From the IMG/VR virus record IMGVR_UViG_3300017978_000263, positions 1 through 37,355 of that record: a stretch of 37,355 nucleotides of DNA; one strand, given 5' to 3'. A program made the position numbers and the translations under genes. Source of the DNA: a virus. Of the stretch, positions 28,711 to 37,355 are shown piece after piece (the first letter of the stretch is position 1; the number at the start of each line of letters is the position of its first letter). The notes beneath the pieces were generated by a model. That model was not told where the DNA came from, made no database searches, and worked only from the letters and a program-made list of their open reading frames with translations.

Positions 28711-28998
28711 TTACTTCCACACGGTAGGTACAGTTGTAACAACTAATTTATCAGACAGCTTACCGATATAGCAAGTGCCTACATTAGAGAAGATACAGCA
28801 ATAAACCCTGCGCCACTTACCGTTGTATTTCACCATATTAGCAGTTGCTATACGCTTGCCATAGCCCGTGGCTGTCTGCATCAGTCCTAATTTATGACAT
28901 TGTAGATTGACTGTCTTATGCTCTACAGGTATAGGCTCATTATAAGACCACACACCGTTATCTTGAATAGTATAGGTTTGAATTGCATAGTTTGACAT
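28711..28998 (-). CDS. Hypothetical protein (95 aa)
   Basis: The preferred start is ATG 28998 (MSNYAIQTYTIQDNG...), preceded by CTAAGGATCAAGATC. The longer track ORF (to 29064) would overlap the upstream gene. Confidence 0.5.
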   Translation of the reverse strand: MSNYAIQTYTIQDNGVWSYNEPIPVEHKTVNLQCHKLGLMQTATGYGKRIATANMVKYNGKWRRVYCCIFSNVGTCYIGKLSDKLVVTTVPTVWK

Positions 28999-29035
28999 GA
29001 TCTTGATCCTTAGATAGTTAATTGATGATGAGTGA

Positions 29036-29254
29036 TTAATGAGACCAAAGCCCATTAACAACAAAATATTCTACGTCAAACGCTGACGACAGATTACCTG
29101 TGACAGGTTGGTTATCTGCTCCTAAGACCTGCCAACCTTTTATTGTGTTCTTAATGGTGAACTGCTTACCACTAGGTGCGATAACAACGCATCCATCAGC
29201 GACATGGCCCTTCATTGATGTGAAGTCTTTAGATTTTACTGTTTGATTTGACAT
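29036..29254 (-). CDS. Hypothetical protein (72 aa)
   Basis: The preferred start is ATG 29254 (MSNQTVKSKDFTSMKGH...), preceded by the same TTAAGGATCAAGATC module. Confidence 0.5.
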   Translation of the reverse strand: MSNQTVKSKDFTSMKGHVADGCVVIAPSGKQFTIKNTIKGWQVLGADNQPVTGNLSSAFDVEYFVVNGLWSH

Positions 29255-29400
29255 GATCTTGATCCTTAAGAAGTTACAAGGTTGAAGTTTAGAGGGTGAG
29301 CCACACCACCACGATAGCGAGGGTGTAGAGCCAGTATAGAACAGTTTGTACGGCACTATGTGCCTTAGCGATAGAGTTTTGCATGGTGCTGTTTCCTTGA

Positions 29401-29595
29401 TTAGATTAGATCGACTGTGATGCCTGAGTCATCAGACGTAATTGCAATAGTACCTGCCTTGGCTAAAGTGTTCAGAATGCCTATCAATTCGACTGTGGTG
29501 ACGTTCAATTGTTCTTCTACCCACACCCATACACTGAACAATGAACAGGGCGCTGAGGCTTCGATATGGTATTGAATGGCTGATAAGTTTGTCAT
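29401..29595 (-). CDS. Hypothetical protein (64 aa)
   Basis: ATG 29595 is preceded by GGAG. It is preferred over the overlapping 114-aa ORF 29432-29776. Confidence 0.45.
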   Translation of the reverse strand: MTNLSAIQYHIEASAPCSLFSVWVWVEEQLNVTTVELIGILNTLAKAGTIAITSDDSGITVDLI

Positions 29596-29612
29596 GGTGG
29601 ATGCTCCAGTAA

Positions 29613-29628
29613 AGACCCCGAAGGGTCT
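29613..29628 (-). promoter_or_regulatory. AGACCC-UUCG-GGGUCU tetraloop hairpin after the first early gene
   Basis: The minus-strand RNA reads CAGACCCUUCGGGGUCUUUACUGG: a 6-bp GC-rich stem, a UUCG loop and a short U-run. It lies between 29634 (stop) and 29595 (next start). Confidence 0.5.
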
Positions 29629-29633
29629 GTGGT

Positions 29634-29858
29634 TTATTGGGTGATGAGGTGAACGAGACGATCAGCCGCTTCGAGGCGCGTGGTGCGGTCTGTGGACTGC
29701 ATGAGATCAGCACAGAGACGCATCTCACGGATGATCTGAGCGATGTAGCGAGCGTTCGCTCCGTCGGTGGTTTCACGGCTCCACATGGTGTGCGCTACGG
29801 CCTCCAGTTTGTCCATGGTCTGCTCGATTGAGCGGAGTTCTTGTGATGTGAATGTCAT
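29634..29858 (-). CDS. First early gene, hypothetical protein (74 aa), GC-rich
   Basis: The preferred start is ATG 29858 (MTFTSQELRSIEQ...), preceded by CTAAGGATCAGATC. G+C is about 59% by hand count over 29641-29820, against about 42% at 29401-29460. Confidence 0.5.
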   Translation of the reverse strand: MTFTSQELRSIEQTMDKLEAVAHTMWSRETTDGANARYIAQIIREMRLCADLMQSTDRTTRLEAADRLVHLITQ

Positions 29859-29927
29859 GATCTGATCCTTAGTTGATGACATGGCGTTGTTGCCATGCTA
29901 GAGACTATGCACAGAGTATGCCAGCTT

Positions 29928-29938
29928 GAACCTTACAA
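29928..29938 (-). repeat. Inverted satellite copy of the 9-mer array unit (TTGTAAGGTTC on the minus strand)
   Basis: The plus strand gaaccttacaa (29928-29938) is the reverse complement of ttgtaaggttc, which is identical to the last 11 nt of the array (30230-30240). Confidence 0.7.
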
Positions 29939-29961
29939 GTACTTTGTAGGATATGCTCAGG

Positions 29962-30053
29962 TTATCCACAGTCAGACATGGCTCTGTTACTGGGTTTGTA
30001 TATAGTTATCCACAAGCTGATAAGATATCCACAGCTTACAATGGTTATCCACA
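29962..30053 (+). promoter_or_regulatory. Cluster of four same-orientation DnaA boxes (candidate replication origin / DnaA-responsive control region)
   Basis: TTATCCACA at 29962-29970, 30006-30014 and 30045-30053 (perfect), and ATATCCACA at 30025-30033 (8/9). All are on the plus strand. They match the consensus TTATCCACA of bacterial DnaA boxes. Confidence 0.6.
30033..30042 (-). repeat. Second inverted satellite copy of the 9-mer unit (ATTGTAAGCT on the minus strand), between DnaA boxes 3 and 4
   Basis: The plus strand agcttacaat (30033-30042) is the reverse complement of attgtaagct, which occurs in the array at the unit 5/6 boundary. Confidence 0.6.
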
Positions 30054-30176
30054 GGTAGCACTAGACTGGTGCATTTATGTCTCATGTTGGTGCATGAGGT
30101 TGCTATGATGCACTGAATAGGTGCTTAGGCCTGGCGTGCTTGGGTGTACGTAATAGGTGCTACATTGCCCCTCACG

Positions 30177-30239
30177 TGTAAGCTTTGTAAGTATTGTAAG
30201 GAATGTAAGACTTGTAAGTATTGTAAGCTTTGTAAGGTT
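30177..30239. repeat. Tandem array of seven 9-bp units TGTAAGnnn (iteron-like)
   Basis: tgtaagctt tgtaagtat tgtaaggaa tgtaagact tgtaagtat tgtaagctt tgtaaggtt, with no gaps. Units 1 and 6 are identical, as are units 2 and 5. Confidence 0.95.
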
Positions 30240-30337
30240 CGTTACTGACTCGATAGTCATTAGTGATGGGGGGAGGGGGTAGGGCTTTGGTGTTACTTTT
30301 GTGGGAGCCTCTAAAGCATACAAAAAAGTCAATGGAG

Positions 30338-30434
30338 GAATAGATAAGTAGAGACTAAAAAGCTAATGAAATCAATAAACTTAACATAATAATTAGGGAC
30401 AGGTCTGAATAGATACGTAATGTAGACTAGAAAG
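30338..30434. repeat. Imperfect direct repeat pair in the AT-rich part of the hub
   Basis: gaatagataagta-gagactaaaaag (30338-30362) and gaatagatacgtaatgtagactagaaag (30407-30434). Confidence 0.6.
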
Positions 30435-30493
30435 TGGACACAGGAGCCTGCCATAGGGTCTCATGAGAGGGCTATGATGTGGACACAAGAGCC
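30434..30493. repeat. 15-bp direct repeat GTGGACACA(G/A)GAGCC x2, 45 bp apart, flanking the palindrome TCTCATGAGA
   Basis: Copies at 30434-30448 and 30479-30493, with the palindrome at 30459-30468. The second copy, TGTGGACAC, is a 7/9 match to the reverse DnaA box TGTGGATAA. Confidence 0.65.
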
Positions 30494-30551
30494 CTATGCA
30501 GATAGTGTTGTCACGTAGGAGACATCTATGTAAATAAATATCAAATAAAGC

Positions 30552-30579
30552 TTGACAAATGAGAAAAGAGGTATACAAT
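30552..30579 (+). promoter_or_regulatory. Sigma70-type promoter P1 for the rightward (terminase/late) arm
   Basis: TTGACA (30552-30557), 16-nt spacer, TACAAT (30574-30579). It shares the gcTTGACAAA context with P2. Confidence 0.6.
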
Positions 30580-30782
30580 ACTCTATGAAGGTAATCCTTC
30601 CAAGAACTCAAATGAAGACTTTGTAGACAAGCTGCTTAGTTAAATACAAGAAGTTCTTTATGAGTAGTCATTACTGACCTTAGTTTCATTGAAGATGAAC
30701 ACAAGAGGTTGTATAAGTAAGTAACTACTTCATTTAGATTCTTGCTTTAATGTTAAATGTCTTAGTATCTCTAGAGTACTCA

Positions 30783-30816
30783 TAGTAGTGGGTATCCCTA
30801 TTGTTACCCCTTACTA
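30783..30816 (+). promoter_or_regulatory. 12-bp imperfect hairpin in the 5' leader, about 30 nt upstream of the small terminase start
   Basis: tagtagtgggta (30783-30794) pairs with taccccttacta (30805-30816), with one mismatch and one G-U. The loop is 10 nt. Confidence 0.4.
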
Positions 30817-30845
30817 TTAATAGTCTATCTCCTTAAAGGACAAAG

Positions 30846-31259
30846 ATGACAACCCCAGAAGAGCCAGTTAAACGTAAGGCAGGAAGACCCAAGAAGGGTG
30901 AGATAGTAGCCAAGAAGAAAGGCCATAGAGAGTTACGTGGTCGTCCAGCAGGGGACAAAGCTATCATGGATGAGTACAAAGCTAGGATGCTTAACTCACC
31001 TAAGTCAGCTAGGGTCTTAGAGGCTATCTTCGATGCTGCCTTAGATCCTGAACATAAGGCTCAGTCAGCAGCATGGAAGCTTATAGTGGACAGGATCGTA
31101 CCTGTGTCTTCATTTGAACAAGTTAAACAAGGCGGTGGTACTCCTGCTATTAGCATTAACATTACAGGGCTTACTCAAGCTAGTACTGTTATTGAGCAAG
31201 ATGATGTCTCGTACGACAGCACGTCTTATGACATCTCGGATGTAGAGGCTAAGGAATGA
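30846..31259 (+). CDS. Putative small terminase subunit (137 aa)
   Basis: The basic N-terminus has AT-hook-like GRPKKG and RGRPAG. ATGA overlap with the large terminase gene. The call rests on position and DNA-binding character. Confidence 0.5.
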   Translation: MTTPEEPVKRKAGRPKKGEIVAKKKGHRELRGRPAGDKAIMDEYKARMLNSPKSARVLEAIFDAALDPEHKAQSAAWKLIVDRIVPVSSFEQVKQGGGTPAISINITGLTQASTVIEQDDVSYDSTSYDISDVEAKE

Positions 31260-32530
31260 CCTCATTGAACTTTGAGCTACTGAAGTGGCAACAAGAGGTC
31301 TTCAAGGACACCCATCGCTTTAAAGTGGTTGCAGCAGGTCGTCGCTGTGGTAAGTCTAGGCTCTCCGCAGTGACCCTGCTCATTGAAGCTCTGAACTGTC
31401 CTGAAGGGTCAGCTGTGATGTACATAGCTCCTACCCTCGGACAAGCTAGAACTATTATGTGGGACTTACTGAATGACTTAGGTAGACAAGTCATCAAGTC
31501 CTCCCATGTAAATAACTTGGAGATTACTCTTGTCAATGGAAGAAAGATCCTTGTTCGAGGGGCTGATAATCCCGATTCTCTTCGTGGTGTCTCTCTTACT
31601 TATGTCGTTCTAGACGAGTGTGCCTTTATTAAGGAAGACGTATGGCAGAAGATCATCCGAGCTTCCTTGTCAGATAAGAAGGGTAGAGCCTTGTTCATTT
31701 CCACTCCTAGTGGACGTAACTGGTTCTACGAGGTCTTCAAGCTAGGACAGGCAGAGGATGAGAGTCCCCAAGGGGACGTAGAGTGGCAGTCATGGCACTT
31801 CACCACTAGAGATAACGAGACTATCGATCCTAAAGAGATTGATGCTGCTGAACGTACTCTAAGCTCCTTTGCCTTCAAACAGGAATACTTGTCTTCCTTC
31901 GATAACGCTGGACAAGAGGTATTCAAAGAGGAATGGTTAAAGACCTCAGAGGAGCCTCAGTACGGTGAGTACGTAGTAGCCATTGACTTAGCTGGCTTCG
32001 AGGAAGTAGGTAAGAACCCCGGTGCTGCTAAGTCTAGACTTGATGAATCAGCTATAGCCATTGTCAAGATAGAAGACAACGGTAACTGGTGGGTCAAGGA
32101 GATCATAGCTGGTAGATGGGATATTAAGGCTACAGCAGCTAAGATCCTTAACGTAGTACGTGAGTATAAGCCTATCTCTGTTGGCATCGAGAAGGGTGCT
32201 TTAAAGAACGCTGTAAGCCCTTACCTCAATGACTTGATGAGGAAGAACAACGTCTACTGTCACATCTCAGACCTGACACACGGTAACAGGAAGAAGCAAG
32301 ACAGGGTTGTCTGGTCTTTACAAGGACGTTTAGAGCATGGTCGTATCTCCTTCAACGAGGAAGAGGATTGGAAGGAAACCTTCGATCAGATCATGATGTT
32401 CCCTACAGCAGGGGTTCATGATGATAGGGTTGATGCTCTGTCTTACATTGACCAGTTAGCTGTCACTAGCTACCAACAAGATTACGAAGAAGATGATTGG
32501 GAACCTCTTGACTCAGTGTCAGGATTTTAA
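31256..32530 (+). CDS. terL: Large terminase subunit (424 aa)
   Basis: Walker A AAGRRCGKS, Walker B VVLDECAF, and a C-terminal nuclease-type acidic motif (GVHDDRVDALSY). Confidence 0.85.
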   Translation: MTSLNFELLKWQQEVFKDTHRFKVVAAGRRCGKSRLSAVTLLIEALNCPEGSAVMYIAPTLGQARTIMWDLLNDLGRQVIKSSHVNNLEITLVNGRKILVRGADNPDSLRGVSLTYVVLDECAFIKEDVWQKIIRASLSDKKGRALFISTPSGRNWFYEVFKLGQAEDESPQGDVEWQSWHFTTRDNETIDPKEIDAAERTLSSFAFKQEYLSSFDNAGQEVFKEEWLKTSEEPQYGEYVVAIDLAGFEEVGKNPGAAKSRLDESAIAIVKIEDNGNWWVKEIIAGRWDIKATAAKILNVVREYKPISVGIEKGALKNAVSPYLNDLMRKNNVYCHISDLTHGNRKKQDRVVWSLQGRLEHGRISFNEEEDWKETFDQIMMFPTAGVHDDRVDALSYIDQLAVTSYQQDYEEDDWEPLDSVSGF

Positions 32531-32545
32531 TATCTAAGGATTTAT

Positions 32546-33043
32546 ATGTCGGATTGGATTAACCAGTACCTTCAATTTAAAGAAACACCGTGGTCGCCTA
32601 CAGTGTTGCCTGAAGCTGAAGAACAGAAGTTTAAAGATTGGTTGCAGAACACTCAGATCTTTAAAGCTACTAAGCAAGACATTGCAGCTGAGAACGGCAT
32701 TCCTGCTGATAAGTTAGACAATCAGCGTCTCATTGAGATGATGCTTAAAAACTCTGATTACGACTATCGTGGAGCCTTTAAGGACAACATGAAGGAGAGT
32801 ATCAGCAAGGAAGACAACAGGCCACACATGCTGTCTTCTACTAGCACAGGTCAAATGTTGAAGGATCCTTCCCATCCGACTGCGTGGAAAGAGTTCTTCA
32901 TGCGTCAGTACAAGGTCGATCCTGACACTATTGGCCTACATGACTTTGAGACTGCTAAAGGGTGGCAAGACCAGATTAACAATAATCAGCCTCAACCAGC
33001 TAATGTCTTTTACAAGGATCCTTTAGGCTTTACTATTAAATAA
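32546..33043 (+). CDS. Hypothetical protein (165 aa)
   Basis: ORF between the terminase and portal genes. No motif recognised. Confidence 0.55.
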   Translation: MSDWINQYLQFKETPWSPTVLPEAEEQKFKDWLQNTQIFKATKQDIAAENGIPADKLDNQRLIEMMLKNSDYDYRGAFKDNMKESISKEDNRPHMLSSTSTGQMLKDPSHPTAWKEFFMRQYKVDPDTIGLHDFETAKGWQDQINNNQPQPANVFYKDPLGFTIK

Positions 33044-37178: not shown

Positions 37179-37355
37179 ATGGACAAAGACCTATACGCTC
37201 CAAGGGAGCTAGAACGATTTTACGAGGATGCCTTCTCAATGATGTCCACTCAAGGGTGGAAGGATCTGATGGAAGACATCGAGCGTGTAAAGAATAACTA
37301 CGACAAACTATCTGCTGTCACGGAAACACACCCATTAGACTTTCGTCGTGGACAG
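37179..37355 (+). CDS. 5' part of the wrap-around ORF that ends at 142
   Basis: The ATG 37179 frame stays open to the window end and continues at base 59 after removal of the 58-bp overlap. Confidence 0.6.
   Translation, partial: MDKDLYAPRELERFYEDAFSMMSTQGWKDLMEDIERVKNNYDKLSAVTETHPLDFRRGQ
37298..37355. repeat. Terminal overlap copy 2 (identical to 1-58)
   Basis: Exact 58-bp identity with the window start. Confidence 0.95.

Follow-up and report, generated by a model that had tools for sequence, protein, structure and literature searches.

The window analysed here is a stretch of viral DNA of 37,355 nucleotides (IMG/VR record IMGVR_UViG_3300017978_000263), and the element in question is a non-coding array of seven gapless 9-bp units of the form TGTAAGnnn at 30177-30239 on the + strand. 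We tentatively read this array, with a confidence that falls just short of even, as an accessory, copy-number-variable cis element on which a sequence-specific DNA-binding protein would dock cooperatively. An earlier sequence-only reading of the window had already suggested a cooperative protein-binding array, and this still appears to be the best account, with the binding itself being something that we infer. The TGTAAG hexamers start at 30177, 30186, 30195, 30204, 30213, 30222, and 30231, a step of exactly 9 bp, and they are followed in order by the triplets CTT, TAT, GAA, ACT, TAT, CTT, and GTT. Units 1 and 6 are identical, as are units 2 and 5, while units 3 and 4 are unlike each other and unit 7 is unpaired. 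Tandem Repeats Finder (TRF) called 30177-30236 with a period of 9, 6.7 copies, and a score of 64, and gave a second call on the array with a period of 27, 2.2 copies, and a score of 85. The site positions and TRF calls agree with what had been said of the repeats, their triplets, and the pairing of the units, and the array is devoid of self-complementarity. Genome-wide, 36 TGTAAG sites were counted against 28.5 ± 4.9 expected, and nine of the 36 sit in one 312-bp stretch (29932-30236). The enrichment test proposed in the sequence-only reading was therefore borne out as a cluster around the array, but no enrichment was found elsewhere in the genome.

Relatives of the window were collected from IMG/VR through the large terminase TerL (278 relatives) and the primase (350 relatives). 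Arrays of this family were taken from an exact scan for at least four TGTAAGnnn units together with the relative loci, and a metagenome scan added one, which gave 13 related arrays in IMG/VR and one from metagenomes. Copy number was 4 in four loci, 5 in three, 6 in three, 7 in four (including the window), and 8 in one. Differences in array length were always whole units, and degenerate in-phase units flanked none of the arrays. Across 80 units in 14 family arrays, not one variant of the hexamer was observed, and the variable triplet was CTT in 27 units, TAT in 21, ACT in 12, GTT in 11, GAA in 8, and GAT in 1; locus L534 contributes a seventh type, AAA. The seven unit types need at least seven substitutions, all of which fall in three of the nine positions (p ~ (1/3)^7 = 5e-4, hand calculation). 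In addition, TGT and AAG were never switched to synonymous codons in the 80 units, which indicates a constraint on the DNA hexamer and its 9-bp phase rather than on a peptide. This comparison of relatives points to selection acting on the hexamer at the DNA level, in line with the constrained hexamer and the non-coding nature proposed for the array beforehand. Of note, the arrays persist alongside proteins at the position of a small terminase (terS position) that are 62-82% identical to that of the window, with differing left modules and differing right-hand neighbours.

The mirror order of the triplets, which the sequence-only reading had presented as a feature, did not survive this comparison. 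Arrays mostly open with CTT and close with GTT, and their internal order varies: the period is 27 bp in L007 and 36 bp in L033, and L049 and L067 alone repeat the unit order of the window, which L050 matches in part. Because the internal order differs in this way, the mirror order is a by-product of block duplication and deletion and not a conserved feature. It would also carry no structural meaning where all hexamers point one way.

The array lies in a non-coding hub of 963 bp (29883-30845), which divides leftward early and replication genes from the rightward terS-position, terL, and portal genes. From the left, this hub holds satellite 1, DnaA boxes (satellite 2 falling between the third and the fourth), GGTGC(A/T) repeats, the AATAGGTGCTACATTGCCCCTCACG anchor, and the array; after the array come a palindrome, a G6AG5 run, the TTACTTTTGTGGGAGCCTCTAAAGCATACAAAAAAG block, an AT-rich tract, three GTGGACACARGAGCC-type repeats, and a sigma-70 promoter. 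The features of the hub and of the adjoining open reading frames (ORFs) are as follows.

29634-29882, - strand: first leftward (early) ORF, 82 aa.
29928-29938, - strand: inverted satellite 1, GAACCTTACAA, complementary at 11/11 positions to 30230-30240.
29962-30053, + strand: four same-orientation DnaA boxes, with starts at 29962, 30006, 30025 (1 mismatch), and 30045.
30033-30042, - strand: inverted satellite 2, AGCTTACAAT, an inverted copy of ATTGTAAGCT, between DnaA boxes 3 and 4.
30058-30161, + strand: roughly six GGTGC(A/T)-type repeats, the palindrome GCACTAGACTGGTGC among them.
30152-30176, + strand: left slot anchor AATAGGTGCTACATTGCCCCTCACG, the last ATAGGTGCT-type repeat, kept beside very different slot contents in relatives.
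30177-30239, + strand: TGTAAG array of seven units; arrays of the same type, with 4-8 units, in 13 related IMG/VR loci and 1 metagenome locus.
30242-30263, no strand assigned: palindrome TTACTGAC-tcgat-AGTCATTAG, directly 3' of the array.
30268-30279, + strand: G6AG5 run, right slot anchor and mosaic breakpoint, nearly invariant in 51 sequences.
30293-30328, + strand: most conserved non-coding block of the family, TTACTTTTGTGGGAGCCTCTAAAGCATACAAAAAAG.
30320-30409, no strand assigned: AT-rich tract (GC 27-28%) that may serve as an unwinding element, located 80-170 bp right of the array.
30552-30579, + strand: near-consensus sigma-70 promoter TTGACA-16-TACAAT, facing the terS-position gene.
30846-31259, + strand: 137-aa ORF at the terS position, with a basic N-terminus and two GRP motifs, and without a family assignment.
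31256-32530, + strand: large terminase.

Within this hub, the left anchor and the G-run bound a hypervariable slot in which the array sits, and nine of 44 distinct slots were found to contain it. L087 is 82% identical to the window over 29289-30780, yet it has a different slot cassette and no array. In L068 the TerS-position protein and TerL are 100% identical to those of the window, homology begins only at 30264-30308, and the array is likewise missing; the same holds for L115, which like L087 has a TerS-position protein 93-95% identical to that of the window. A conserved core of the module does not fit these absences. It had been stated that absence from close relatives would count against the array; such absence was indeed found, and it argues against an essential role but not against a functional one. 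The array-minus slots draw on a small vocabulary of short elements. These include 22-bp repeats cTGTGGATAActtgtgagtaac, each with a perfect reverse DnaA box, which are present in 2-4 copies in many relatives (L082, L103, L112, L122, L300, and others), as well as the TGAC-N6-GTCA palindrome, GTAAGyayACTTAC-type palindromes, TTGTATACAA, GAGAATGATTCTC, and six copies of AATGTTTCACG. GTAAG, GTGAG, and AGTAA are enriched 6-7 fold in 35 array-minus slots, and by sequence match DnaA boxes recur in the family in differing places and orientations. We counted the operator-like slot contents (the TGAC-N6-GTCA arms, the 22-bp DnaA-box repeats, and the GTAAG-type enrichment) in favour of protein binding, together with the lack of any Rfam match and of conserved RNA structure nearby.

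The two CTTACA satellites go together with the forward DnaA boxes as a single module, which is present in the array-plus window, L073, L057, and L067, and in the array-minus loci L079, L087, L110, L278, and L294. Conversely, five loci (L001, L014/L285, L029, L042, and L049) have the array without DnaA boxes or satellites. The array and the DnaA-box module assort independently across relatives, from which it follows that the satellites belong to the DnaA-box module and not to the array. The two inverted satellites exist just as the sequence-only reading had described them (11 nt and 10 nt), and satellite 2 does lie between boxes 3 and 4, but the array stands beside the boxes rather than among them: its first unit begins 123 bp past the last box, and the boxes span 123-215 bp to its left. 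Moreover, with five array-minus loci having both satellites and five array-plus loci having neither, their assignment to the array system could not be upheld.

TGTAAG recurs in a second phage family (L020/L040 type, with at least 600 TerL relatives and loci including L543-L622). BLASTP revealed no similarity between this family and the window in the loci first compared, and a profile comparison of the terS-position proteins of the two families detected no homology (hhalign probability 0.9%). The second-family hub, 0.4-1.2 kb upstream of terL, has a layout matching that of the window and likewise precedes the terS, terL, and portal genes. It contains DnaA-like 9-mers (some in 9-bp tandem, such as TTGCCCACA x3), GTTAGT..ACTAAC palindromes, a GGGGGAGGGGTAGGGCC G-run, an AT-rich tract, and TGTAAG motifs. 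TGTAAG shows enrichment and a strand bias upstream of the terS-position gene of this family (2.05 per 1.3 kb versus 0.36 per kb across loci), where it mostly occurs as pairs 10-11 bp apart or in a 29-bp composite, with a preferred position 24 nt 5' of the G-run. Arrays of at least three 9-bp units were found in 0/62 relatives, L020 with seven units and L040 with five being rare cases in this family. Both families occur in the same samples, and the 165-aa ORF after terL in the window (32546-33043) is 36% identical to an ORF beside terL in L589 (2062-2496), with which it shares the motif PTAWKE[FY]FMRQ; this similarity suggests gene exchange between the two lineages. Given its recurrence in the second family, TGTAAG is probably a genuine recognition motif, which would have been amplified lineage-specifically in the window. 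Its reader would then be common to both lineages, and a host protein would be the simplest candidate.

In the mechanism that we propose, the array would arise by tandem amplification of the TGTAAG recognition motif in a recombination-prone cassette slot of the hub, and this hub would join origin-like features (DnaA boxes and AT-rich tract) to the start of the packaging/late operon. The putative binder would most likely be a host factor or else a protein shared throughout the phage family, and the array would act in the manner of omega- or MetJ-type repeat operators and centromeres or, loosely, of iterons. Bound proteins would be placed about 51 degrees apart in a left-handed spiral that would close a full turn over seven units (63 bp, six helical turns); the arithmetic given earlier for the 9-bp step, about -51 degrees per unit, is right. 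We infer that such proteins could coat or stiffen the stretch and might thereby tune origin firing, early/late transcription, or packaging initiation beside the G-run, while the array would be required for none of these processes.

Several observations weigh against this docking-site reading. When 2.9 M viral contigs were scanned with TGTAAG and with two control hexamers of the same composition, 9-bp array loci numbered 67 for TGTAAG and 68 and at least 120 for the controls. Since the controls give as many arrays or more, we rejected a special status of TGTAAG arrays across viruses, and the bare 9-bp array pattern is ordinary. The absence of the array from about 80% of the distinct slots means that any function would be dispensable or replaceable. 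Neither the terS-position ORF nor any ORF up to 9 kb to the left co-varies with the array, and the best covariation candidate, a 77-aa zinc-ribbon ORF, is also present in the array-minus loci L087 and L068; the sequence-only reading had named an early zinc-ribbon protein as a possible binder, for which, as for any other neighbouring protein, these data offer no support. Finally, the 9-bp spacing in the window contrasts with the dominant 10-11 bp of the second family, and the array could be a poorly binding product of slippage. The picture changes when only those non-coding arrays are counted in which the hexamer is invariant but the spacers are heterogeneous: TGTAAG then has 16 loci (13 of the family of the window), whereas the controls have 1 and 2. 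Bacterial genomes also yielded more than 120 TGTAAG arrays, most of which are perfect 9-mer satellites unrelated to the array of the window. Perfect TGTAAGGTT / TATAAGGTT 9-mer satellites are dispersed many times over in single Ignavibacteria and Bacteroidota genomes (such as metabat2.211 and Danxiaibacter flavus). A search of the literature on TGTAAG repeats and 9-bp pac repeats returned nothing relevant.

Around the array, the hub contains further elements that are kept in the family. Copies of the ATAGGTGCT-type repeat are kept in most relatives, and it may be these that are the genuinely conserved repeats of the hub. The palindrome TTACTGAC-N5-AGTCATTAG (TGAC-N6-GTCA core) keeps its arms and varies its centre in more than 15 relatives, a pattern that looks operator-like, and a partial second copy is located at 30665-30677, downstream of the late promoter. 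The homology of many relatives begins at 30262-30266, by the G-run. In the TTACTTTTGTGGGAGCCTCTAAAGCATACAAAAAAG block, TTGTGGGAGCCT and ACAAAA are invariant in 51 sequences whose mean column identity is 58%, and no RNA covariation or conserved structure was detected in it. Together, G6AG5 and TTACTTTTGTGGGAGCCTCTAAAGCATACAAAAAAG (30268-30328) are a candidate pac/cos or origin core, and the G-run resembles R-loop or G-quadruplex primer elements such as mitochondrial CSBII. Sigma-54 or NtrC-like readings of the conserved blocks were discarded, as they are not kept in relatives (by eye). The sigma-70 promoter lies 267 bp upstream of the terS-position ORF, and a leftward early promoter of comparable strength was not found. 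Three direct repeats (G)TGGACACARGAG(CC) at 30434-30493 and 30696-30707, between the AT-rich tract and the terS-position gene, resemble cosB R sites in their placement. Contig ends gave no precise genome termini, being scattered within +/-300 nt of the slot, a pattern consistent with the breaking of assemblies where the sequence is hypervariable.

With its 58-bp terminal overlap (1-58 and 37298-37355), the window closes into a circular assembly of ~37.3 kb, and the junction-spanning stretch of roughly 1 kb (36785-488) has no long ORFs. To the left of the hub, the leftward genes comprise small unannotated ORFs followed by a T7-like primase-helicase, DNA polymerase, and exonuclease, and further include endonuclease I and VII, ThyX, and ribonucleotide reductase. 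To its right, the 137-aa terS-position ORF, terL, the portal gene, and structural genes are read rightward. We recognised neither an RNA polymerase nor an integrase or replication initiator in the window, and Pfam and PHROGs assigned no DNA-binding or initiator family to the terS-position ORF and 20 early ORFs; the lack of a recognisable initiator and the origin-like or regulatory character of a hub with DnaA boxes and an AT-rich tract are as the sequence-only reading had it. The cumulative GC-skew minimum is near 29 kb, and because the skew switch coincides with the switch in gene orientation it is no indication of an origin by itself. The 137-aa protein has 2191 metagenome homologues, all unannotated, and its GRP motifs are AT-hook-like. 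It had no match in Pfam, PHROG, or a PDB profile search, its AlphaFold model is poor (pLDDT 57), and it is TerS by position only. Two adjoining leftward ORFs (28711-29356) share a duplicated 5' segment (..LRIKIMSN..) and have no homologue in any of ~80 related loci. A megablast of the region against 50,697 phage records gave zero matches, and tblastn with TerL and primase found no cultured relative with more than 50% identity, the best primase match among cultured phages being below 50% and the TerL matches below 40%.

We considered whether other explanations could account for the array. It might be a neutral, functionless minisatellite produced by replication slippage or unequal recombination in a hypervariable spacer, as would befit a copy number of 4 to 8, 27- and 36-bp higher-order periods that indicate block duplications, its dispensability in most relatives, and the commonness of 9-bp arrays of arbitrary hexamers in viral and bacterial DNA. 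However, the hexamer stayed invariant over 80 units while the spacer diversified to 6-7 types, the arrays end abruptly and are retained on diverged backgrounds, control hexamers seldom form non-coding arrays with heterogeneous spacers, and the same hexamer is found at a fixed position in the second family, and we regard neutrality as unlikely. That the array and its two satellites are the iterons of a DnaA-assisted origin, bound by a phage initiator and central to replication control, seems to us quite unlikely. The four DnaA boxes to the left, the AT-rich tract (GC 27%) to the right, the GC-skew minimum, a T7-like replisome without an RNA polymerase or initiator gene, and the DnaA-box cassettes that fill the same slot in other relatives are all consistent with an origin. 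Yet array and DnaA-box module are each found without the other (see above), no protein co-varies with the array, gapless 9-bp units are unlike iterons of 17-22 bp, the GC-skew switch merely tracks gene orientation, and the natural array-minus relatives suggest that replication is normal without the array. We judge it very unlikely that the array is a packaging recognition site (pac or cosB/cosQ-like) on which a TerS ring would bind one unit per subunit, with the DNA wrapped around it. The array is 607 bp upstream of the terS-position ORF, close to terL; TGTAAG arrays or pairs lie by terS/terL in the same orientation in the unrelated L020, L040, and L051; all three TerL proteins match phrog_2 (two of them also phrog_5902); and, as TerS rings are 8-11-mers, 4-8 units at 9 bp would suit such a ring. 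In spite of this location next to terS, the site does not co-vary with the TerS allele: L068, L087, and L115 lack the array with TerS-position proteins identical or nearly identical to that of the window, whereas the array-plus alleles are only 62-82% identical. The lack of detectable homology between the TerS-position proteins of the two families and the purely positional naming of the 137-aa ORF speak against it as well, and the G-run with the TTGTGGGAGCCT block, which travels with terS, is a better pac/cos candidate.

Two further possibilities concern the products of transcription. The repeats could act as RNA, with UGUAAG/CUUACA motifs in a leader, non-coding, or primer RNA that traverses the slot and ends at the G-run or hybridises near it, which we consider most improbable. 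The left anchor TGcTACATT, 10 bp before the array, resembles an extended -10 element, the downstream G6AG5 resembles R-loop or G-quadruplex primer-forming elements, and transcription from a candidate leftward promoter near 30580-30603 would run through the entire hub. However, only a minority of relatives have T as the final base of the putative -10, which makes the anchor a weak promoter candidate that we set aside; Rfam gave no match, the conserved block has neither structure nor covariation, the array cannot pair with itself, and the slot palindromes keep their arms and vary their centres, like protein operators. The array could also encode a Cys-rich micro-peptide, (Cys-Lys-X)7, in an ORF at 30144-30248, for the frame is open through the array on both strands and the CKx frames are open too in L020, L040, and L031. 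With a GTG start that lacks a ribosome-binding site, zero synonymous variation of TGT/AAG in 80 units, replacement of the slot by unrelated sequence in relatives without conservation of the ORF, and a 10-nt unit that breaks the frame in L051, this barely conceivable reading is effectively refuted already.

We also compared the array with known repeat systems. The omega protein heptads of pSM19035 (7 bp, 7-10 copies) and the met-boxes of MetJ (8 bp, 2-5 copies) are operators or centromeres made of contiguous repeats and read by ribbon-helix-helix (RHH) dimers. The array shares with them gapless repeats shorter than a helical turn, a variable copy number, and a location in a control region, and possibly also the cooperative spiral of proteins around straight DNA. 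It differs in its 9-bp unit, its 6-bp invariant core with a free triplet, the single direction of all units, and its optional presence in the family. The repeat geometry is that of an RHH-type array, but a linked RHH gene was not found: Pfam and PHROG revealed no RHH or similar DNA-binding gene among the neighbouring small ORFs, although remote homologues could escape such searches. Iteron origins (lambda ori/O, P1 oriR/RepA, R6K, and pSC101) have helix-phased repeats of 17-22 bp and a linked, co-evolving Rep gene. Like these, the array of the window consists of non-coding direct repeats by DnaA boxes and an AT-rich tract; unlike these, it has no phased 17-22 bp repeats and no adjacent co-varying Rep gene, and across relatives it assorts independently of the DnaA boxes. 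The sequence-only reading had rightly noted that the 9-bp period departs from the usual iteron phasing. The terminal repeat and concatemer junction of T7 carries irregularly spaced CCTAAAG-type repeats and C5/G5 runs at the physical genome ends. The window resembles it in having non-coding short repeats and G/C runs by the packaging/early-promoter end, a T7-type replisome, and a CTAAAG motif in the conserved block that recalls the T7 repeats. Its array is regular, in contrast to the T7 repeats, and the contig ends in its family are scattered. P1 pac hexamers, P2 Cox boxes, and OmpR/PhoB boxes (CpxR GTAAA-N5-GTAAA) are spaced by about one helical turn or irregularly. They too consist of several copies of a 5-9 bp motif, which in those systems is read cooperatively, and the 10-11 bp TGTAAG pairs of the second family resemble such winged-helix response-regulator boxes; none of them is gapless at 9 bp, and the surroundings of the array encode no such protein. 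As a whole, the hub is most like the injection-stop-signal region of phage T5, a large untranslated region with repeats, inverted repeats, palindromes, and ordered DnaA boxes, which was likened to oriC but proposed to serve another purpose (Davison, bioRxiv 10.1101/866236). The likeness lies in the repeats, the palindromes, and the ordered DnaA boxes; the T5 region, however, is situated in a long terminal repeat and its structure is kept across T5-like phages, whereas the hub of the window is a combinatorial hypervariable slot in a 37-kb, podovirus-sized genome.

The array had been proposed as the best candidate in the window for an undescribed replication or transcription control module. The regulatory hub and the constrained hexamer agree with this proposal, while the array by itself is optional and no core mechanism. 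Of greater interest is the layout of exchangeable cis-modules common to two abundant uncultured phage lineages. We put forward, as a rather unlikely proposal, that TGTAAG, G5-7(A)G4-5, GTTAGT..ACTAAC palindromes, and DnaA(-like) boxes may constitute a shared cis-regulatory layout, a host-factor-dependent origin/packaging hub, used by two or more very abundant uncultured lineages with unrelated protein sequences. Their initiator-less replisomes would be started by host DnaA and a second, TGTAAG-reading host protein, and the slot cassettes, including the 9-bp array, would be freely exchanged tuning or titration modules. The phage lineage of the window is abundant (2191 homologues of the 137-aa ORF and 278 IMG/VR terL relatives), yet it has no cultured member. 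With a T7-type replisome that comes without an RNA polymerase or initiator, the answers to how replication starts and how the early-late switch is made must lie in the hub, which is built of exchangeable short cis-modules between two invariant anchors and in which the TGTAAG module signals sequence-specific selection. Finding its binder would open up both the use of host factors by such phages and a natural, 9-bp-phased protein array.

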